Assembly (NCBI RefSeq): GCF_000027125.1
Contig: NC_017626.1
From: Escherichia coli 042
Lineage (GTDB): Bacteria; Pseudomonadota; Gammaproteobacteria; Enterobacterales; Enterobacteriaceae
Direction: 5' to 3' (one strand)
DNA: 64,000 nucleotides
Notes under the pieces: generated by a model
What the model was told of the DNA's origin: nothing
The model's database searches: none
What the model saw: only the letters and a program-made list of their open reading frames with translations
In this document: positions 2,650-50,498 of the stretch, one piece after another
How the letters are laid out: every line of letters starts with the position of its first letter
Numbering within the stretch: the stretch's first letter is position 1
Position numbers and translations under genes: made by a program

Positions 2650-3859
<1,210 letters not shown>

Positions 3860-3863
<4 letters not shown>

Positions 3864-4510
3864 GCCTCTGCTCCGGGTTTGATCAGCATCAGACCACAGC
3901 CGAACGCGCGGCTTTTGCCATACCCCTGGCTCAGACGTTGCAGAAATAACCCAGGATCGGTGACCGTAAGCATCCCCGTATAATCCACGCTACAGAACTG
4001 GATCAGTTGCCGGGAGTTTTCCCGCCGCAGTTGCTGTTGTCGGTAGGCATCGACCGAGGTATCCAGTAGTGTAAAACCGCTTCTTTCCCCCTGCGCTGCC
4101 AGCCAGTCCAGCGCCGCCTGTTGTTGATGCAACCAGACATCACGCCCTTCCGCCTGCCCCCTCACCTGCCGTTTCGCCTCTATCAGCAGATCGTGGCGCT
4201 TACCCGCTTTACAGACTGTTGGATTCGCCCGCAGGTTGAAACAAAGGGATTGTCCGGTACGCAGCTCCGGCGCAAATGACCGGCATTCGATGGTGAACGT
4301 ATCACTTTCCGCCGGGCGTTCCTGCGACAGGACAAAAAAGCGAAACGCGCCCTGGAGTTCTTCCCGACGATAAAGAAATTGCCTTTCTTTGCCACCCGGG
4401 AAAAGATCCCACAGCCACTGATGCATCACATATTCACCGCGATCCACCAGATGCAGCAACTGCGCAGGCGAAAGCTGGCCGGTATGTAAGGTTATTCTTG
4501 AGAGGTACAT
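3860..4510 (-). CDS. casE: Cas6e / CasE (Cse3) crRNA endoribonuclease
   Basis: Track ORF 3860..4648; I place the start at the internal Met (MYLSRITLH..., about 4510), which is preceded by AGGAGG. C-terminal glycine-rich segment GCGLMLIK typical of Cas6e. Confidence 0.85.
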
Positions 4511-5238
4511 GGTTCCTCCTTGCTGAGCCACGGCCCCTGATTGACGGTGCGTTCCCCAAACAGCCACTGCTGGCGATTTAAAGGAACATCCCGGCGGCGC
4601 AATATTTTGCTCGCGACCAGGCCGTCGTGCTCCCCTTCCCACCAGCATTCATCCTGAAGTTTCGGGAGTGAGACTTTCAGTTCGTGGAAACGATCCTGAT
4701 ACTGTTGGTATGCGTTACGTAAGACATCAGACGCGTTGCCTTCGAGCAGTAACGGCGCAAGTGGTAACGCCAGCGGATGACTTTTTCGCCCCAGATAAAG
4801 CGGAAAAACCGGATGACGTAAATCTTCCTGCAACTGTTCGAGGCTGTAAGGCGCATCGGGGGTTGTTGCCACCGCCACCATCCACCAGGCGTCGGTGTAA
4901 TAGTCGCGCCGGGAGATAATCGCGCTTAGCAGTTCAAGATTACTCAACTCTTCGCGACGGCTGAAATAACGCGCTTTACGCACCTCTTTTGGCATCTGGA
5001 CCGTGTGATAATCCCGTGCCCAGCGCGGGTTACGGCTGGCGCAAACCACCAGTGAATAGTGGCGATTAAACGCGTTTAAGCGTTCGGTATCATCACGCCG
5101 AATCCCTACCCCGGCAGCCAGCAGCCCCAGCAATGCTGAGCGCGAAGGCAGTTCATGGGTATGACGCACTTCACCGGGGGCATCGACGCCCCAGGATGCC
5201 ATCGGCCCATGAAGCTGAAAAATTAGATATTGGCTCAT
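4492..5238 (-). CDS. casD: Cas5e / CasD
   Basis: 248 aa, MSQYLIFQLHGPMASWGVD...RSALLGLLAAGVGIRRDD matches the Cas5e N-terminal motif; operon position. Confidence 0.9.
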   Translation of the reverse strand: MSQYLIFQLHGPMASWGVDAPGEVRHTHELPSRSALLGLLAAGVGIRRDDTERLNAFNRHYSLVVCASRNPRWARDYHTVQMPKEVRKARYFSRREELSNLELLSAIISRRDYYTDAWWMVAVATTPDAPYSLEQLQEDLRHPVFPLYLGRKSHPLALPLAPLLLEGNASDVLRNAYQQYQDRFHELKVSLPKLQDECWWEGEHDGLVASKILRRRDVPLNRQQWLFGERTVNQGPWLSKEEPCTSQE

Positions 5239-5248
5239 AAGCCGCCCC

Positions 5249-6304
5249 TTACGCGCAGATAAAGTCCAGCACGTCCTTCATGCTTCCCTGTTTGTTCATC
5301 ACGTCAAAACTTGTGTAATCGGTCTTCTGTTCGTAAACCTTATTCATGTTTTCGCGAAGCGTCGTAATACGCTGCACCGCTTCATCTAACTGCCCGGTGC
5401 CGTTAATGGGTTCATAAAAAGCCGCCGCCAGAGAGCGCGGTTGTTCGATACCTTTTTCTGCCATCGCCCAGGAGGCGTAGGCACGACTGGCAAAGCTGTT
5501 TTGTTTACCGGTTGGGGAAACTTTAAACGCGGCTTCCGTAAAGGCGCGCAGGGTCTGATTAGCCAACGCTTCGTCTCCGCCGAGGTTTTCTACCAACAGA
5601 TCTTTATCAATGCAGATATAGGTGTAGAAAAGTGCTGAACCGAATCCGGTTTCACCAAGATGCCCGGCACCGGCATCTTCAGAAGCCTGGCGCAAATCAT
5701 CAACGGCGGTGAAAAAATCATCTTCGACAATCGTTTCACTGACACCAAACGCATGCGCAACCTGGCAGGCGGCTTCAACATTAAACTCGGGTTTATTCGC
5801 CAGCATACGACCAAACATAGCGATATCTACCGCCATGCGATCTTTACGTAACAAAGCGAGATCTTCCTCTTTTGGCGCGCGCTTTTCTTCGGCCAGTTGA
5901 TGGGCCAGCGCTTTTACGGCGTCAAATTCTGCCGGGCTGATATGGACTAGCTGTTCAGTTTCGGCGTTAGTGAGCGGATCTTTTGGTTTTTTGTCGTTTT
6001 TAGCTTTCCCAAGATAATCCGCAATTTTTGCCGCCCATTCGATGGCTTTTTTCTCTTCGATGCCTTTCTCAATCAGGATAGTTGCCGCCTCACGCGCAAT
6101 ACGCCCACTGCGAATACCAATATGGCCCGCCAGTGCCTGTTCAAAATGTGCAGAAGTGCGCCACGCACGTTTCAGACTTTGTGAGGAAACGCGCAGACGC
6201 GTTGCTCCACCCAGTACCACAGTTTTTGGCGCACCGGTGTCATCACGGTTAAGGTTGGCAGCAGGGTAAGCGGTTAACAAATGAAGCTGAATAAATGTCG
6301 TCAT
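5249..6304 (-). CDS. casC: Cas7e / CasC (Cascade backbone)
   Basis: 351 aa, MTTFIQLHLLTAYPAANLNRDDTG...SSQSLKRAWR is the Cas7e signature; operon position. Confidence 0.92.
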   Translation of the reverse strand: MTTFIQLHLLTAYPAANLNRDDTGAPKTVVLGGATRLRVSSQSLKRAWRTSAHFEQALAGHIGIRSGRIAREAATILIEKGIEEKKAIEWAAKIADYLGKAKNDKKPKDPLTNAETEQLVHISPAEFDAVKALAHQLAEEKRAPKEEDLALLRKDRMAVDIAMFGRMLANKPEFNVEAACQVAHAFGVSETIVEDDFFTAVDDLRQASEDAGAGHLGETGFGSALFYTYICIDKDLLVENLGGDEALANQTLRAFTEAAFKVSPTGKQNSFASRAYASWAMAEKGIEQPRSLAAAFYEPINGTGQLDEAVQRITTLRENMNKVYEQKTDYTSFDVMNKQGSMKDVLDFICA

Positions 6305-6318
6305 GAGATAGTCCTTTA

Positions 6319-6855
6319 TTAATTTTGTTCGTTATCGGCGTCGCCAGCCTGGTAATATTCCAGCGCCCAGCGGATACGGATAAATTCTGTTGGCCGCTGC
6401 TGGCGGCGGTGATGATTGAGCAGATCGTCGCTCTCCTGGCACCAGCGGAAAATATCGTCTGCCAAAGAGATAAGATTGACGGAACCATTTAATAATTTGA
6501 CCGCGCGACGTAACTGGCGCAGTAATTCATCCGGCGTTTTGACTGCCGACAGGCGAGTAAAACGCCCCTCAGACATTACCGCCGCCAACTGCGCGGCAAA
6601 AAGCTGCCGTTCATCAATGGCTTTTACATTGGCGGCAACGGCGGCAACCAGCGCCAGTGCGGTAAAACGCCACTCCTGTGATTCAATTTTCCACAACGTG
6701 TGGGTCTGCATCAGCAGAGAACGAAACCCTTCTGACAGACAAACATCATTAACCGTTGTGCTACGCCGCAGACTGGCACGATTGCCTCGTTTTTCCTGCA
6801 ACTCTTCGTGCCATTTACGCAGCGTGGCTTTGTGCTCCTCTTTTACAATACTCAT
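6319..6855 (-). CDS. casB: Cse2 / CasB (Cascade small subunit)
   Basis: 178-aa ORF between casA and casC with ATGA-type overlap to casA; assignment mainly by operon position and size, sequence divergent from my memory of K-12 CasB. Confidence 0.75.
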   Translation of the reverse strand: MSIVKEEHKATLRKWHEELQEKRGNRASLRRSTTVNDVCLSEGFRSLLMQTHTLWKIESQEWRFTALALVAAVAANVKAIDERQLFAAQLAAVMSEGRFTRLSAVKTPDELLRQLRRAVKLLNGSVNLISLADDIFRWCQESDDLLNHHRRQQRPTEFIRIRWALEYYQAGDADNEQN

Positions 6856-8414
6856 TCAGCAGCCTCCTGCTTTTTCTCCCTGGCGGCTTTAGCACTTTGC
6901 TTCTCCGCCGATGTTGTAAAATATTTCTTGCGCGCGGTCATGACGCGTTTCAAATCAACGGGCTCATAAGGATTAGTGAATACACGCTCGTCAAAATCCT
7001 GACGCGCGAATAACCAAATTTCCTTTTGCCATTTGCCGAGTAATTCATCCGCATCCTGACCTTCTTCAATTTGGCGCACTAACCTCAGGAAGCGATGCTG
7101 AGTTTTGTTCCAGAAGTCGATATCCACAAAACTAAAATCACCCCGAGCACCTTTTGGATCGGAGAACCAGGCTTCTTTCAATGCACTCCGTAACAGACTT
7201 AGAATCCGTGAAGCCGTTTGCGCAACCAGCCGCAGCTTCGGTATCTGGCCTTCTTTTTTATTGAGCAGCAGCGGGAAATGGTGTTCGTACCAACAACGGG
7301 CTTTCATGTTGTCAAAATCATAACCAAATCCCCACAGGCCCACTTTTGTCTGCTTCAGACTGCTGGCATTAAAGAGTTTCACCACCAGCGCGGGAAGTTC
7401 CGTATTGTTTTCTGACTTACCCGTTTCGATAAGACCTAACCAGTCGCGCCAGATTAAACCGCCCGGTTGTGGTTTAACGGAGTAAAACTCACCGCCCTCT
7501 TTAAGTGGTACACGGTAAGGCGTTAAGGGATGCTGCCACATGGCATAATTCGCACCATAATTTTTGGTCGTCATCAGGCTCAGGAGCGAGTCATTCTGCT
7601 CGCCGCAAATATCGCAGTTGCCGACTGTCGTGGTATTAAAATCAATACGAATACGCCGCGGCATTCCCCAGTACGCCTGGAGTTTATTGACCTGATCATG
7701 GGTTACCACCGCACCGGCCAGTTCGCTGGTACGCGTCGGGCCAAGCCAGGGGAAAATCAGATCGTCAAATTTTTTGGGTAGCGGTAAGTCGGCTTCATCC
7801 TGCGGCATCACATTGAGCCACAGTTTGCGCCACAAGGGTGTTTGTTGATTGCCCTGATATTCCTGTAATTCAATCAGAGTGGTCATCGGCCCACCGCCGC
7901 GTAAACCGGTGCGATAGCCTTTGCCGCCTGACGGCGCATTTAACTGTAGGGAGAACAGAGCTAACGCAGAACAATGTGGGCACAGGTATTCCGTTACACC
8001 ACGCTTGATAAAGTGGTCTTTATTAAACTTCGTTGTTTGAGCGCCGGGAATCTCAGGCAGTAGCGAAGCGACCGGAATTTTATCTCCGGTGAGCGCCTCG
8101 AAATCCTGCATAAATGAAGGGGAATCTGGGCCAAACTGGAAAGCATGTTCTAAAGATAGCAATGCTTCCCGTAGCTTTTCAGCTTCCAGTCCGTCTTCCC
8201 AGATATCATCCCAACGACGATGATCTTTTGGCGCGAAGCTGGTTTGTAGTAGCCCCAGCAAAAACTGCCACGCCGCTCCCTGGAGATCTGCCCGCGGCGC
8301 AGCGATATCGACAACATTTTCATCCGCCAGATCGACTGGCGCCAGTTTGCCTGTTGTTCCGTCTTTAAAACGAACGGGCAACCACGGGGTTGTCAGAAGT
8401 GAAAACGAGTTCAT
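6852..8414 (-). CDS. casA: Cse1 / CasA (Cascade large subunit)
   Basis: Track ORF 6852..8483; I favour the start at MNSFSLLTTPWLPVRF (about 8414) with GAGAGG 6 nt upstream; the 8420 and 8483 starts remain possible. Size about 520 aa fits the Cse1 family. Confidence 0.8.
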   Translation of the reverse strand: MNSFSLLTTPWLPVRFKDGTTGKLAPVDLADENVVDIAAPRADLQGAAWQFLLGLLQTSFAPKDHRRWDDIWEDGLEAEKLREALLSLEHAFQFGPDSPSFMQDFEALTGDKIPVASLLPEIPGAQTTKFNKDHFIKRGVTEYLCPHCSALALFSLQLNAPSGGKGYRTGLRGGGPMTTLIELQEYQGNQQTPLWRKLWLNVMPQDEADLPLPKKFDDLIFPWLGPTRTSELAGAVVTHDQVNKLQAYWGMPRRIRIDFNTTTVGNCDICGEQNDSLLSLMTTKNYGANYAMWQHPLTPYRVPLKEGGEFYSVKPQPGGLIWRDWLGLIETGKSENNTELPALVVKLFNASSLKQTKVGLWGFGYDFDNMKARCWYEHHFPLLLNKKEGQIPKLRLVAQTASRILSLLRSALKEAWFSDPKGARGDFSFVDIDFWNKTQHRFLRLVRQIEEGQDADELLGKWQKEIWLFARQDFDERVFTNPYEPVDLKRVMTARKKYFTTSAEKQSAKAAREKKQEAAE

Positions 8415-11406: not shown

Positions 11407-11559
11407 CTACTTCTTCGATTCGTAAGCGAGAACTGCCTTAAACTCCATACCACGTTCTCTGATACTCAACTCACACAACGAGTCGCCTACCATCAGCGTG
11501 AATCCCAGTACTGTACAACACAGTACGATGATTGCCACAAGGGCATATTTTGTCAGCAT
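11407..11559 (-). CDS. Hok/Gef-family type I toxin, 50 aa (HokE-like), unannotated small ORF
   Basis: Hand translation of the minus strand gives [50 protein letters not shown]; single TM helix, conserved Cys and C-terminal AYE motif, GGGAGG SD upstream, GC hairpin just 3' of the stop. Below the track size cut-off. Confidence 0.8.
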
Positions 11560-11823
11560 GTCTTGCCTCCCTGCAAAGAAGAGACTAACATTCGAATTGC
11601 TTAGGTTCGAACGCTGGCCTCAGGTTGATTGAAATATCGCCTGGGGCTTTTGTCCATCTGGAACCTCGCGAATGCTTAACGCCAGACAGCCTCAAGCACC
11701 CAACGCCATTCTATACCTGTTAATTTTCCCTGCGATGTTCACCTTTAAATGCCGGAATGCTGCTCGCAAAATAAAAACGCCCCCATCATTTCTGACAGAG
11801 GCGTTTAATTTATCCGGCAATAT

Positions 11824-43952: not shown

Positions 43953-43985
43953 CCGGCTCCTGACAGAGCCGGTTTTGGTTTTCTG
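43953..43985 (+). terminator. rho-independent terminator shared by barA and the convergent gudD
   Basis: CCGGCTC-CTGACA-GAGCCGG followed by TTTTGGTTTTCTG. Confidence 0.7.
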
Positions 43986-43987
43986 TC

Positions 43988-45328
43988 TTAACGTACCATG
44001 CACGGACGCTTGTTATCGAACGTCCAGCCAGGAATCAGATACTGCATTCCCATTGCATCGTCACGCGCGCCAAGCCCGTGCTTCTGATACAGCTCGTGGG
44101 CTTTCATCACCTGATCCATATCGATTTCTACGCCCAATCCTGGTTTTTGCGGCACCTGTACCAGCCCGCCTTTGATCTCAAACGGTTCTTTGGTCAGACG
44201 CTGATTGCCTTCCTGCCAGATCCAGTGTGTATCAATCGCGGTGATTTTACCCGGTGCAGCAGCGGCTACATGGGTAAACATCGCCAGGGAGATATCGAAA
44301 TGATTGTTAGAGTGTGAACCCCAGGTCAGGCCAAATTCATGGCACATTTGCGCCACACGTACCGAACCTTGCATCGTCCAGAAATGCGGATCCGCCAGCG
44401 GGATATCAACGGATTGTAACGAGAGCGTATGGCCCATCTGCCGCCAGTCGGTGGCGATCATATTGGTTGCGGTTGGCAGGCCAGTCGCGCGACGGAACTC
44501 TGCCATCACTTCACGCCCGGAGAAACCTTGCTCCGCACCACACGGATCTTCTGCATAAGCCAGCGAACCTTTCAGGTATTTACCGATTTTAATCGCTTCG
44601 TTCAGCGACCAGGCACCGTTAGGATCGAGGGTAATACGCGCCTGTGGGAAGCGTTGCGCCAGTGCCACAATAGATTCGGCTTCTTCTTCCCCGGCCAGTA
44701 CACCGCCCTTCAGTTTGAAATCGTTGAAGCCATATTTTTCATATGCCGCTTCCGCCAGGCGCACCACCGCATCCGGCGTCATCGCTTCTTCGTGACGCAG
44801 GCGATACCAGTCACATTTATCATCCGGCTGGCTTTGATACGGCAGCGGTGTGGCTTTGCGATTACCGACGAAGAACAGATAACCGAGCATTTCGACTTCG
44901 CTACGCTGTTGACCATCGCCCAGCAGCGATGCCACGTTAACCCCCAGATGCTGCCCCAGCAGATCCAGCATTGCCGCTTCTATACCGGTAACCACATGAA
45001 TAGTGGTCCGCAAATCAAATGTCTGCAAACCGCGCCCGCCGGCATCACGATCGGCAAATGTATTACGCACCAGCGTCAGAACGTTTTTGTATTCACCCAG
45101 CGTTTTACCCACCACTAGCGGAATCGCATCTTCCAGCGTTTTACGGATTTTCTCGCCGCCGGGAATTTCCCCTACGCCGGTGTGACCAGAATTATCTTTG
45201 ATAATCACAATATTACGCGTGAAGAACGGTGCGTGTGCACCACTCAGATTCATCAGCATACTGTCATGGCCCGCCACCGGGATGACCTGCATTTCAGTAA
45301 CAACAGGCGTCGTAAATTGAGAACTCAT
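43988..45328 (-). CDS. gudD: glucarate dehydratase
   Basis: Track ORF 43988..45352; start placed at [25 protein letters not shown] (about 45328), 446 aa; enolase-superfamily fold. Confidence 0.9.
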
Positions 45329-45348
45329 ATTTATGTCCTTTTTCAAAA

Positions 45349-46689
45349 TCAATGACGGCCGAAAACGGGACGTTTACGGTCAAAGGTCCAGCCGGGGATC
45401 AGGTACTGCATCGGGCCCGCGTCGTTACGCGCACCGCCAGGCAGACGTTTATAGGCCTCATGCGCCTTTTGTACCTGCTCCCAGTCCAGTTCCACGCCCA
45501 GACCGGGCGCATCAGGAACGGCAATTTTTCCGTTTTTAATCTCCAGCGGATTTTTGGTCAGGCAACAATCTCCCTCCTGCCAAATCCAGTGGGTATCGAT
45601 AGCAGTAGGATTACCCGGTGCCGCCGCGCCCACATGGGTAAACATCGCCAGAGAGATATCAAAGTGGTTATTGGAATGGCAGCCCCAGGTCAGCCCCCAG
45701 TCGTCGCAAAGTTGCGCCACGCGGACTGCACCGGAAAGCGTCCAGAAGTGCGGATCGGCAAGTGGAATATCTACCGCATTGAGCATCACCGCATGGCCCA
45801 TTTCGCGCCAGTTGGTGGCGATCATGTTAGTCGCGACGGGCAAGCCGGTCGCCCGCCGAAACTCCGCCATCACTTCACGTCCGGAGAAACCCTGTTCTGC
45901 GCCACATGGATCTTCGGCATAGGTGAGAACATCATTCAGCCCTTTGCACAGAGAAATGGCTTCATCAAGCAGCCATGCACCGTTGGGATCAACGGTAATT
46001 CGCGCATCCGGGAAGCGTTTCTTCAATGCACGAACAGTGTCGATTTCTTGCTCGCCAGGTAACACTCCGCCCTTAAGTTTGAAATCTTTAAAGCCATAGC
46101 GATCCTGTGAAGCTTCCGCCAGACGCACAACGGCTTCGCTGTTCATCGCTTTCTGATGCCGCAATTGATACCACTCATGGTTGCCCGGCGTATTTTCCAG
46201 ATAAGGAAGATCGGTTTTGGTCCGATCACCGATATAAAACAGATAACCGAGGACGGTAATAGCATCGCGTTGCTTGCCTGGCCCTAACAGTTCGCAGACC
46301 GGAACATTCAGCGCCTTACCTAGCAGGTCAAGCAAGGCGGCTTCCAGCGCCGCCACGGCATTAACGCGCAATTCAAAAGTCCAGGCACCTTTGCCGAAGG
46401 TATCAAAATCGGCTGCCTGATTACCTTTATGCACCTGCTGAACCACTTTATTCAGGCGCGCAACTTCCTGGCCCAGCACCATCGGAATAGCATCGACCAG
46501 TGTCTGATAAATCACCTCTCCGCCCGGCGCTTCACCAATACCGGTATGCCCGGCGTTATCGGTGAGTACCACAATATTGCGGGTGAAATATGCGTTATGT
46601 GCACCACCAATATTAAGCAACATGCTGTCATGCCCGGCCACCGGAATGACTTTCATATCAGTAATAACAGGACTGGATTGTGTCGTCAT
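45349..46689 (-). CDS. gudX: glucarate dehydratase-related protein (paralog of GudD)
   Basis: 446 aa, [31 protein letters not shown]...; strongly paralogous to the adjacent gudD. Confidence 0.9.
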
Positions 46690-46690
46690 C

Positions 46691-48043
46691 TTATTGCCCC
46701 GCGACAGGTTTCAGCTCGATACGCTTGATATCGCCCACCAGCACCAGGTAGCTCAGCACCGCGATTAAGGCATGAACACCAACATAAATCAGCGCCCCAT
46801 TAAACGAGCCAGTCGTGCCAACGATATAACCAATTGCGATTGGCGTGACGATGCCAGAAATGTTACCGAACATGTTGAACAGGCCACCGGAAAGACCGCT
46901 GATCTCTTTTGGCGCGGTATCTGCCATTACTGCCCAACCCAGCGCCCCGATGCCCTTACCGAAGAAGGCCAGCGCCATAAAACCGATGATCATCCACTCA
47001 ACGTTGACGTAGTTGCAGAACACCATCACCATCGACAGCAACATGCCCATTACGATCGGTGTTTTACGCGCAATGTTCAGCGATCCCGTGCGGCGCATCA
47101 GCCAGTCGGAAATAATCCCACCCAGCACACCGCCGATAAAACCGCAAACCGCCGGAACGGAAGCCACAAAGCCCGCTTTCAGAATCGACATCCCACGCGC
47201 CTGCACCAGATAAACCGGAAACCAGGTAATGAAAAAGTAAGTCAGGGCGTTGATACAGTACTGACCGATATAAACGCCGATCATCATCCGTGACCCGAGC
47301 AGCTGTTTGATCTGCCCCCACTTCACGCTGAACGGCACTTTAACTTTGGTATTTTGCTGATCCATATTGATCAGCGCGCCACCCGCGGCGATGTACTCCA
47401 GCTCTTTCTGATTTACACCCGGATGTTGATTTGGCTCGTGGATGACTTTCAACCAGATAAAGCTGATGACAATGCCCAGACCGCCCATAAAGAAGAAGAC
47501 GTGTGACCAGCCCACTTCATGCGTCAGCCAGCCCATAATCGGCGCGAAGATCACCGTTGCGAAGTATTGAGCGGAGTTAAAAATCGACACCGCCGTTCCC
47601 CTTTCCTGCGCCGGAAACCAAGCCGCAACAATGCGACTGTTGCCGGGGAAAGATGGCGCTTCAGCAAGCCCGACCAGGAAGCGCAGCGTAAACAGGGCAA
47701 CGATAATGCCGAATCCACTAAAGATATCGACGAAGCCTTGCAGCAAGGTAAACATCGACCAGATAAAGATCGACCAGAAGTAGACGCGTTTTGAACCAAA
47801 ACGATCCAGCAACCAACCACCAGGGATCTGCCCGATAACATAAGCCCATGAGAAGGCAGAGAACACATAGCCCATTCCCACGGGATCAAGGCCGATATCT
47901 TTGGCCATTTCCGAACCGGCAATAGAAAGCGTAGCGCGGTCGCCGTAGTTGAAGGATGTGACGATAAACAACATCACCACTATCCAGTAACGAGCATTCG
48001 TGCGTTTTTCCACACTGCTCGCAGCCTGACTTAAAGAACTCAT
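46691..48043 (-). CDS. gudP: glucarate/galactarate MFS transporter
   Basis: 450 aa polytopic MFS protein, first gene of gudPXD. Confidence 0.9.
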
Positions 48044-48370
48044 TGTTGCACTCCTGAAAATTCGCGTTAGCCACGCTCACTCTGGACTGCGACATCGCCA
48101 GGAAATCAGAGGTGACGTAGGGTGTTTTTTGCCGTTTTTATAGGTCGTTCGCCGAATACGGCGCGTGTTTATATCTGGCAATAGCAGTATAAAAAGCGCG
48201 CCATAGCGGCTCACCGTGCAACAACACAACATTAATGCGTTCAATGAGGCCCAATTTTGGCATTAGCCCTGGACGGTGGAATCCACTTCACGGAAATGAA
48301 AACAAGAACAAGAAAGGAAGGGTTAAAACGAAGAAATAAAGAAGAGTATGAAATGGATCGCTTGACTCCA

Positions 48371-48421
48371 GGCAAACGCCAGTAAAAATCCGCGCTATGA
48401 AGCAGTTTTTACTGGCATTTG
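48371..48421. repeat. 17-bp-arm inverted repeat in the yqcA-gudP intergenic region
   Basis: GCAAACGCCAGTAAAAA ...17 bp... TTTTTACTGGCATTTGC (one mismatch). Confidence 0.7.
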
Positions 48422-48442
48422 CCTGAAAAGATTCGATTCAGC

Positions 48443-48502
48443 ACCGCTAAAACGGCATTTACACCGCTAAAACGGCATTTACACCGCTAAAACGGCATTT
48501 AC
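48443..48502. repeat. perfect tandem repeat, 3 x 20 bp, plus partial fourth copy
   Basis: ACCGCTAAAACGGCATTTAC repeated three times head-to-tail, followed by CCGCT. Confidence 0.9.
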
Positions 48503-48517
48503 CGCTCGCTGAACGTA

Positions 48518-48967
48518 TCAGGACAACAGCGTGCCCCAATGTTCGACCCACGGATTTGATTCCGTTTCCGGTTCCGGGTTCTCACTGGCGTCAATCAACA
48601 GCATTTCTCCCACTCGCTGAGCGCTCTGTTCCTGCAACAAGGCATCGAACTGTTTGCCGCCATTGCAGAAATTCACATAACTACTGTCGCCGAGCGCAAT
48701 CACGCCATAACGCAGATTCGGCTGGAAGCCCAGGGTATCTTTGATTCCCTGAAAGAGCGGCACAATGCTATCAGGAAGGTCGCCCTGCCCGGTCGTGGAC
48801 GTAACCACCAGAACATACTTATCCTGATAGGGCAGCCAGTCGCTTAATTCAGGATCTTCAAATACCGTTGCTTTGTGGCCCTGTGCGGTCAGAATTGCTT
48901 CTGCTTCTTCCGCCACTAACAGCGAATTTCCGTACATGGTGCCGACAAAAATACCAATTTCCGCCAT
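48518..48967 (-). CDS. yqcA: flavodoxin-like protein
   Basis: 149 aa, [23 protein letters not shown]...; flavodoxin fold. Confidence 0.9.
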
Positions 48968-48984: not shown

Positions 48985-49767
48985 TTAGGAACTTATCTCT
49001 CCATCCTGACCCGATGGCGCACTGAACTCAACCCTTTCATTTTCAGGAAGCAGACCGCGCCAGCCAAATTGTGATAACGCCTGCATCCAGGTGTCGTCCA
49101 GGCCCGCGTGAATAGTCAGCGGCTCGCCAGTAAAAGGATGCGTCAATGACAACTGACTGGCATGCAACATTAACCGCTGAAGGCCAAAATGTTCAGCACC
49201 GCTGCGATTCTGGCGTAAATCACCATGTTTGCTGTCGCCAATAATCGGGTGGCGCAAATGGGCAAGATGGCGACGGAGCTGGTGCTTGCGTCCGGTTTTC
49301 GGCTCCAGTTCCACCAGGCCGTAGCGCGTGGTCGGGTAACGTCCGGTCGCTACCGGCATTTCTACGGTCGCCAGACCGCGATAATGCGTCACTGCTGGCT
49401 GTGGGCCTTTATCTTCGCGGGCAAATTTATCAGCGATTTTGTCCAGTTCTTCCACCAGTGGATAATCCAGAACTGCTTCTTCCATCAACCAGCCGCGCAC
49501 AATCGCATGGTAACGTTTCTGGATTTGGTGCTGTTCAAACTGTTGTGCCAGCAGCCGTCCGGCCTCGCTGGATAATCCCATCAACAACACACCAGAAGTT
49601 GGTCGGTCCAGACGATGAGCAGTAAACACATGCTGGCCTATCTGGTCACGCACGGTTTGCATGACCACTACTTTCTCGTCGCGATCCAGCCAGCTGCGGT
49701 GAACCAGCCAGCCGGAGGGTTTATTTACCGCAACCAGCCATTCATCCTGATAGAGTATTTCCAGCAT
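48985..49767 (-). CDS. truC: tRNA pseudouridine(65) synthase
   Basis: 260 aa; RluA-family motif [12 protein letters not shown]. Confidence 0.92.
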
Positions 49768-50096
49768 TAGCTCGCATCATCCGCAAAAAGAGCATCCAGT
49801 TTTTCCAGCTCAGCCAGAATAAGCGCGCGTTGCGGGTGGTCCGTCGCCAGCGCCATTTCATAATAGGGTGCAACGGCAAAAGCGCCCGGTAACGGCTGGT
49901 TGTTATCTAACAAATCGTGCATTCGCGGGATCAGCACCCACTGCAACCACTCCAGTGGTTCCATGGTGTCCATAAAGAACGGTTGGGTACTGTTAAATTG
50001 ATGCGGCTGGGGTTCATCGTTTTGCCAGTGCTGATGTTCACGCAGTAATGCTTCAAGCGCCTGCAGCTGGAGACGAACGCGGTCATGAGTGGTCAT
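49767..50096 (-). CDS. yqcC: DUF446-family protein
   Basis: 109 aa, overlapping the truC start; position upstream of csrB. Confidence 0.85.
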   Translation of the reverse strand: MTTHDRVRLQLQALEALLREHQHWQNDEPQPHQFNSTQPFFMDTMEPLEWLQWVLIPRMHDLLDNNQPLPGAFAVAPYYEMALATDHPQRALILAELEKLDALFADDAS

Positions 50097-50141
50097 AAAG
50101 CAACCTCAATAAGAAAAACTGCCGCGAAGGATAGCAGGAAT

Positions 50142-50498
50142 AAAAAAAGGGAGCACTGTATTCACAGTGCTCCCGGTTCGTTTCGCAGCATTCCAGCTAC
50201 TTTTGTTGCTCCCTGCTCATCCTTGACAACTTTTCCTCTGGCCTTGCGGCCAATCGTTCATCCTGAACTATTGCTTCCTGCTCACACCACCCCGATGTGA
50301 TACTTCATCCTGAAGTGTCCCTGGCCTTCCTGGCCCACCGAATCATCCTGACCGGTTCTCATTCTCCATCCTGGAGGTGTCCTTTAACGCGTCCTGCGTC
50401 ATCCTCTTCGCTTCATCCAGAAGCCTTTCCCTGAAACACCATCCTGGTGTGTCCTTCAGAAGTGTCATCATCCTGATGTTCACTTCGTTGTCTGACTC
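50142..50498 (-). ncRNA. csrB: CsrB regulatory sRNA (CsrA-sequestering)
   Basis: About 357 nt with many CAGGATG / AGGA motifs (seen as CATCCTG on the + strand); 5' end GAGTCAGACAACGAAGTGAACATCAGGATG; 3' terminator GGGAGCACTG...CAGTGCTCCC plus U-tract. Track ORFs 50085..50300 and 50377..50565 lie inside it and are not coding. Confidence 0.95.

Follow-up and report, generated by a model that had tools for sequence, protein, structure and literature searches.

The closest described relatives of the array analysed here are the bacterial VNTR loci that are typed by MLVA. Like these loci, the array is intergenic and consists of exact head-to-tail units, it is polymorphic by whole units between identical flanks, and its length changes faster than point mutations arise. 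Unlike them, it is polymorphic in one core haplotype only, corresponding to ~3% of complete genomes, and elsewhere has a single, fixed copy. A literature search, with most subscription journals outside its scope, found no published typing scheme or paper with the unit ACCGCTAAAACGGCATTTAC or with the yqcA-gudP locus in which it occurs.

A hairpin close to the array is comparable to bidirectional intrinsic (Rho-independent) terminators. It lies downstream of a stop codon, its orthologues are terminator-like, and its arms in E. coli retain AAAAA...TTTTT around the loop. However, the inner hairpin in E. coli is reduced to ~4 bp, the stem reaches 20 bp by way of its flanks, its base has no U-tract, and the genes on either side are co-directional, not convergent. 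The hairpin also resembles REP/BIME and other dispersed enterobacterial repeats in that it is palindromic, follows a stop codon and is a plausible stabilizer of a 3′ end. Unlike REP/BIME, ERIC and similar elements, the region is single-copy per genome, and its sequence is unrelated to REP.

Plasmid iterons and iterated operators are likewise direct repeats of ~20 bp in non-coding DNA, but the array has a variable copy number that is mostly one, has no replication context and is absent in relatives. It differs from a CRISPR array in that its units abut without spacers. The true CRISPR array of the window (that is, of the whole stretch of DNA that we analysed, 64,000 nucleotides of E. coli 042) is located at 2219-2553, where TRF reports the repeat CGGTTTATCCCCGCTG(G/A)CGCGGGGAACAC with a 61-bp period. 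The array is also unlike a phase-variable contingency locus, in that it follows the yqcA stop codon and precedes the putative −10 element of gudP by ~250-310 bp.

The array and the hairpin lie between yqcA and gudP (Table 1), where the MG1655 RefSeq record has no annotated feature. The initial annotation of this DNA, made from its letters alone, placed the segment just 3′ of yqcA and about 400 bp 5′ of gudP, and the gene coordinates agree with this. Because all local genes are on the − strand, the order on the sense strand is the yqcA stop codon, 15 nt, the array, 17 nt, the hairpin, ~325 nt and the gudP ATG, with 400 bp between the array and the ATG. At the gathering threshold, Rfam matches only CsrB and sok in the whole window, and only CsrB in four orthologous loci. 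The match to the sok antitoxin RNA (11544-11701, − strand, 109.6 bits) implies that the window contains a hok/sok-type toxin-antitoxin locus.

Table 1 Features of the yqcA-gudP segment and its surroundings, in positions of the window
Feature	Position	Strand	Basis and remarks
gudX	45349-46689	−	ORFs; RefSeq annotation of matching loci
gudP (glucarate/galactarate transporter) CDS	46691-48043	−	ORF and RefSeq annotation
Putative gudP core promoter	48186-48214	−	Inferred by orthology; −10 TATACT at 48186-48191, 17-nt spacer, weak −35 GTGAGC at 48209-48214
Conserved box just 3′ of the hairpin	48345-48364	−	Sense CAAGCGATCCATTTCATACT; GTCAAGCGAcctgTTTCACACT in other genera; invariant columns; weakly CRP-like
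Long hairpin	48369-48425	−	20-bp arms 48369-48388 and 48406-48425, 17-nt loop; structure and conservation
Conserved box abutting the array	48429-48442	−	Sense GCTGAATCGAATCT; start of the cross-genus block CTGAATCGnGTTAGC
VNTR array, 3 × ACCGCTAAAACGGCATTTAC	48443-48502		Unit on the yqcA sense strand is GTAAATGCCGTTTTAGCGGT
yqcA (flavodoxin) CDS	48518-48967	−	ORF and RefSeq annotation of identical loci; stop codon 48518-48520
truC	48985-49767	−	ORFs; RefSeq annotation of matching loci
yqcC	49767-50096	−	ORFs; RefSeq annotation of matching loci
CsrB	50139-50498		Rfam scan

In the window, the array consists of three exact head-to-tail copies of the unit. A pattern search found them starting at 48443, 48463 and 48483, with 0 expected in shuffled sequence and none outside the array in the 64-kb window. 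TRF called 48442-48502 with a period of 20, 3.0 copies and 100% matches, as the sole non-CRISPR tandem repeat in the window with a score of at least 60. Both methods therefore confirm the perfect 3 × 20-bp array that had been reported. A partial fourth copy had also been proposed. The CGCT after the third copy does match positions 3-6 of the unit, but it is two bases off register, and the TRF count remains at 3.0.

The unit and the hairpin arm were noticed earlier to have GGCATTT in common, and we found this 7-mer at 48414, 48454, 48474 and 48494. By our own calculation, the chance that a 20-nt unit and a 57-nt hairpin share some 7-mer is ~9%. The hairpin arm has a conserved box, GGCAAATGCC, to which GGTAAATGCC in each unit is identical in 9 of 10 positions. 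The unit is quasi-palindromic, and on its sense RNA GCCGUUUUAGCGGU can pair with another copy via G·U pairs. In predicted folds, the units form one imperfect hairpin that grows by ~10 kcal/mol per added unit and stands apart from the neighbouring conserved hairpin. On its other side from yqcA, the array abuts a box that is conserved across genera (48429-48442).

We dismissed the short ORFs that overlap the segment, given that the unit length of 20 nt is not divisible by three and that the frames opened by the loop ATG differ between E. coli and Citrobacter. A 9-codon ORF, ATGAAGCAGTTTTTACTGGCATTTGCCTGA, occupies the hairpin loop and 3′ arm (48398-48427, + strand); it is probably fortuitous, because the ATG in the Citrobacter loop opens a different frame.

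Of 5,426 complete E. coli genomes, 5,425 have a single occurrence of the 561-bp region that we surveyed, and the median is 1 place per genome. We counted multi-copy alleles with a periodic 200-nt query, which seeds solely where at least two exact units abut. Two to six exact copies occur in 170 of the 5,426 genomes, so ~97% are single-copy, in a set of RefSeq complete genomes that is biased and partly clonal. A hit of this query on n copies spans 20n+1, a rule that we verified on fetched examples. Among 60 evenly spaced members of the 170 multi-copy genomes, 24 have two copies, 29 have three, five have four, one has five and one has six; two additional five-copy genomes lie outside this sample. 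Alleles of 1, 2, 3, 4, 5 and 6 copies were read directly from individual E. coli loci.

The K-12 allele is a single copy with a point variant, ACCGCTAAAACGACATTTAC, and other single-copy strains carry the canonical unit. K-12 and many other strains (23 of 40 evenly sampled E. coli genomes) appear to have a variant single unit. The same type of periodic query, built from the variant unit, found no arrays of it in the E. coli collection, and expansion is therefore confined to the canonical unit. Beyond E. coli, the array is absent from 5 other Escherichia and from 65 further species representatives that keep the yqcA-gudP synteny.

A urinary isolate, E. coli EC6563 (NZ_CP095856.1; locus L005), has a clean ~4.3-kb deletion relative to 43975-48320 of the window, which removes gudD, gudX, gudP and the gudP promoter and joins the region downstream of barA just 3′ of the hairpin. 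The hairpin is still present in this strain, together with one variant unit, ACTGCTAAAACGGCATTTAC. In E. coli SCU-482 (L098), which has three copies, IS1 interrupts barA (positions 3783-7316 of that locus) and IS5 adjoins fucA.

Genomes with 2-6 copies match the window exactly in the flanks of the array (688 and 700 nt), and genomes with one copy show differences at 5-9 sites. GudP and YqcA each have one protein allele in all multi-copy genomes that we fetched. Among six genomes that differ by 0 SNPs over ~24 kb, one of which is labelled O15:H18 strain ST69, the copy numbers are 3, 3, 3, 4, 5 and 6. Length change in the array therefore outpaces point mutation. A search with a 165-nt query made of one unit and the window flanks, filtered by E-value to exact matches, found the exact local haplotype of the window with one copy in 28 genomes, mostly of porcine ETEC or O139:H1. 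E. coli CB6837 (L105), a single-copy relative of the window haplotype, has a SNP in the 3′ arm of the hairpin, at the equivalent of 48421.

Over longer distances, the window differs by 278 SNPs from the zero-SNP group and by 94 SNPs from a two-copy group (Ecol_316), and the genome collection has no match to the window above 99.5% over 24 kb. Around the array, the window and both groups have 2.2-3.8 kb of identical core in common. All sequenced multi-copy alleles are on one core haplotype (2-4 kb), in at least three flanking backgrounds. The identical core, the differing backgrounds and the length variation among genomes without SNPs together show that the array, on its one core haplotype, is a true hot spot.

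The initial annotation suggested a strain-variable VNTR, and this holds: there are 1-6 copies across E. coli, all units are exact, flanks are identical and genomes without SNPs differ in length. The array is a genuine VNTR on every count that we tested. It is a cheap and fast-evolving length marker, with alleles of 2-6 copies, for an ST69-like, largely extraintestinal lineage, and it splits the six genomes without SNPs over 24 kb into four alleles.

The duplication junction, TTTAC|ACCGC, joins the end and the start of a 20-bp stretch whose borders share 1 base (C). We propose that this stretch, which most E. coli would have retained as a single copy, was duplicated once with 1 bp of junction homology. 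Once duplicated, the perfect units would gain and lose whole units by replication slippage or unequal exchange, leading to 2-6 copies; we infer the slippage mechanism from the pattern of alleles. A 6-bp direct repeat, ACCGCT, was considered as a seed and rejected: its copies are 18 bp apart in the single-copy state, so it is unable to explain a 20-bp period, and the true junction homology is 1 bp. The case illustrates that a 20-bp segment can turn into a hot spot after duplication even when there is almost no homology at its borders.

The inverted repeat was previously reported as 17 bp at 48371-48421, and left uninterpreted. The repeat is present, but those positions are one base low: the 17-bp arms are at 48372-48388 and 48406-48422, and they extend to 20 bp (Table 1). 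One position in the arms is non-Watson-Crick, and it forms a G·U pair on the − strand. The repeat ranks first of all inverted repeats in the 64-kb window, and we estimate that ~3e-4 repeats of 20 bp with at most 1 mismatch, within 80 bp of each other, would be expected by chance in 64 kb.

The predicted folding energy is −80.9 kcal/mol (z −7.4) for RNA from the − strand and −52.3 kcal/mol (z −3.1) for RNA from the + strand, and the hairpin is predicted to fold at every copy number of the array. Its predicted − strand stem has 20 + 4 bp and lies ~95-150 nt past the yqcA stop codon in the three-copy window, or ~55-110 nt past it in one-copy strains. The base of the stem in E. coli continues into GGAGUCAAGCG, without a U-tract, and a U5 run occurs inside the 3′ arm, after the weak inner stem of ~4 bp. 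A consensus scan found no − strand terminator-like site at the E. coli hairpin. Given the absent U-tract, the short inner hairpin and the negative scan, canonical intrinsic termination is doubtful in E. coli. The Term-seq supplementary data that we searched contain no entry for yqcA or gudP.

A search of a genome collection with YqcA yielded 80 species representatives. In 70 of these, gudP follows yqcA, with ~281-518 intergenic nucleotides in all except one, where additional sequence has been inserted. Two invariant boxes, CTGAATCGnGTTAGC and GTCAAGCGAnnnnnTTCACAC, are 75-76 nt apart and enclose the hairpin in Escherichia, part of Citrobacter, Salmonella, Superficieibacter, Raoultella and others. 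What is conserved in the segment is the inverted repeat. At the position of the hairpin, Enterobacter and the Citrobacter freundii group have REP-like sequences, recognized by eye.

Outside Escherichia, the element has the form GCC(N)GTAAAA, a short GC hairpin, and TTTTTAC(N)GGC. In Citrobacter, the inner hairpin scores as terminator-like whichever strand is read, in Superficieibacter it does so on the sense strand, and a U-tract directly 3′ of the GC-rich stem is present in the orthologues L011 and L066. Judged from these relatives, the E. coli inverted repeat is evidently the descendant of an element with an A-tract, a GC hairpin and a U-tract, resembling a bidirectional terminator. In Escherichia, the GC-rich inner hairpin was lost, having decayed to ~4 bp, and the outer pairing was extended to 20 bp.

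The evidence for selection on the pairing of the hairpin is modest. One pair occurs with three standard pair types (AU in 7, CG in 5 and UA in 3 sequences). Pairing is seen in 76.5% of cells, versus ~45% with a slid partner, and column shuffles do not separate from the observed value. Since a single pair covaries convincingly and shuffling the columns gives no separation, we call the covariation modest. RNAalifold found no consensus stem in 19 orthologous hairpin regions. Reading the stem on the yqcA/gudP sense strand gives more G·U pairs than reading it on the antisense strand.

The segment probably consists of two unrelated things, namely a lineage-restricted VNTR in the yqcA 3′ UTR and a conserved, terminator-derived hairpin at an RNA 3′ end. 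The E. coli hairpin is most likely a terminator-derived element that would define or protect this end. As RNA on the yqcA/gudP sense strand, it would most likely mark or shield the 3′ end of the truC-yqcA transcript and insulate gudP from read-through. The array would lengthen the yqcA 3′ UTR, with its units folding into a growing imperfect hairpin. It looks like an undescribed but ordinary VNTR and not a set of regulator sites, and it is most likely without a regulatory role, assuming neutrality.

Several genera have a larger conserved block at this place, possibly an unannotated RNA or else several clustered DNA sites. The block has ~160 nt and follows yqcA in Salmonella, Citrobacter, Kosakonia, Phytobacter, Silvania, Superficieibacter and Raoultella. 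Its elements are, in order, a GC hairpin whose lower stem covaries and whose loop, CCCUAC, is conserved, a second hairpin (loop GCCAGU), AACGACC, the invariant CTGAATCGnGTTAGC, GGCAnnTGCC, the terminator-like hairpin and GTCAAGCGA...TTCACAC. In L011, L026, L054, L066 and other loci, the block extends ~1-170 nt past the yqcA stop codon (locus positions ~2948-3120), and its equivalent in the window is 48345-48442; E. coli retains only the 3′ half. The GC hairpin with the CCCUAC loop occurs directly after the yqcA stop codon in Salmonella and many genera and is absent from E. coli, which makes the inverted repeat the only strong structure downstream of yqcA in this species. The box GCTGAATCGAATCT (48429-48442) may resemble the operator pattern of Cra/FruR, a LacI-family protein, namely RSTGAAWCSNTHHW with a central CG.

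It is conceivable, though unlikely, that an undescribed RNA, either small or cis-acting, is conserved downstream of yqcA in Enterobacteriaceae with the hairpin as its terminator, and that E. coli keeps only the 3′ half of it. The block, with its hairpins, the invariant CUGAAUCGnGUUAGC and the terminator-like hairpin, recurs in seven genera, and Salmonella already has a separate terminator-like hairpin after the yqcA stop codon, both of which argue for an RNA of its own. No Rfam family matches, which would fit an undescribed RNA; for the E. coli region, the only hits are at chance level (E ≥ 0.25). However, no promoter was identified, and the support from RNAalifold, applied to 17 sequences of the long block, is limited to the first hairpin and a 2-bp GC/GC stem. 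The invariant boxes may just as well be sites on DNA, and the block is absent from many genera. The unannotated hairpin and block between yqcA and gudP may set the 3′ end of truC-yqcA or belong to an undescribed RNA.

The inverted repeat might instead act as DNA, either as part of a promoter antisense to yqcA, possibly an activator-dependent one, or as a palindromic operator; we consider this unlikely. A scan gives TTGACT-16-AAAAAT on the + strand (−35 at 48362-48367, −10 at 48384-48389), and TTGA(C/T) is invariant across genera inside a GTCAAG box. However, one promoter-like hit is at chance level (0.8 expected in shuffles), and the −10-like A-run has no final T in most genera and doubles as a terminator-type A-tract. 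The neighbouring box at 48345-48364 has the CRP-like spacing GnGA-N6-TCAnA. We scored it with a CRP PWM trained on 40 published high-affinity sites (Table 1 of PMC12871828). The training sites themselves score 9.8-21.9 bits with this PWM. The box scores 2.7 bits in E. coli and 5.6-7.6 bits in most other genera (1.1-7.6 bits overall), which is below every training site, and a CRP site was rejected despite the spacing. In addition, the G·U asymmetry of the stem points to RNA from the opposite strand.

A related but improbable reading joins the array to the hairpin. In it, an undescribed structured RNA, either a small RNA or a 3′ UTR or leader element, would be conserved downstream of yqcA across Enterobacteriaceae, with an invariant CUGAAUCGnGUUAGC as a "seed", a GGCAnnUGCC box and a terminator-like hairpin. 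The E. coli hairpin would form its 3′ stem-loop, and in one E. coli lineage the VNTR would expand exactly at the 5′ edge of the element. If this were the case, the added self-complementary hairpin, which grows with copy number, could alter RNA processing or read-through into the glucarate operon. It is also quite improbable that the array works as a length dial in RNA, where the modelled gain of about −10 kcal/mol per unit would alter mRNA stability, access of RNase III or exonucleases, or read-through into gudP. The predicted hairpin does grow with copy number, separately from the conserved hairpin, and several alleles persist, of which three copies is the most common among multi-copy genomes. 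However, steps of 20 bases without a preferred number resemble mutational drift, the variant unit in K-12 shows that the sequence is unconstrained, and the majority of E. coli are array-free.

The units were also proposed to be iterated sites at which a gud-operon regulator would bind. Reportedly, an earlier study defined the control of gud and gar by CdaR. If CdaR or another gud regulator bound the units, more copies would recruit more regulator. The array is indeed inside the intergenic region upstream of gudP, and GGTAAATGCC in the unit is close to GGCAAATGCC in the hairpin arm. However, ~97% of E. coli are single-copy, with K-12 and many others apparently carrying a variant unit, and other Escherichia and other genera are array-free despite conserved yqcA-gudP synteny and gudP-proximal boxes.

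The location of the array is also unfavourable to regulator sites. GTGAGA-17-TATACT occurs at the orthologous place in L011 and L066. In genera with an intergenic region of 281-350 nt, the whole segment is absent, and the gudP-proximal boxes TTCCGTGAA... and TGCACGGTGAG are kept together with GTGAGn-17-TATACT. This conserved element puts the array ~250-310 bp upstream of the likely gudP start, as measured from the putative −10. No 11-mer, with at most 1 mismatch, is common to the unit and the garP-garD intergenic region, although this is a weak test, given that the CdaR motif itself was not part of the comparison. By k-mer comparison, the control regions of gud and gar have no motif in common. 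In view of the single-copy majority, the array-free relatives and the lack of a common 11-mer with garP/garD, we do not uphold the proposal of iterated regulator sites, which we consider very unlikely. The understanding of glucarate regulation is unchanged.

The chance that the copy-number differences are assembly artefacts is negligible, given that arrays of 40-120 bp are below read length, that the length differences between alleles are exact multiples of the unit and the flanks are perfect, and that clonal or resequenced genomes agree, in that three records of 5,067,659 bp have 2 copies each and the sampled lab-derived capsule mutants (six in the 60-genome sample) each have 3 copies.

A further, imperfect tandem duplication occurs within the gudP coding sequence, at 47749-47778 of the window, where TAAACATCGACCAGA is present twice (15 bp, 93%). 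It encodes a repeated 10-residue stretch of the transporter.
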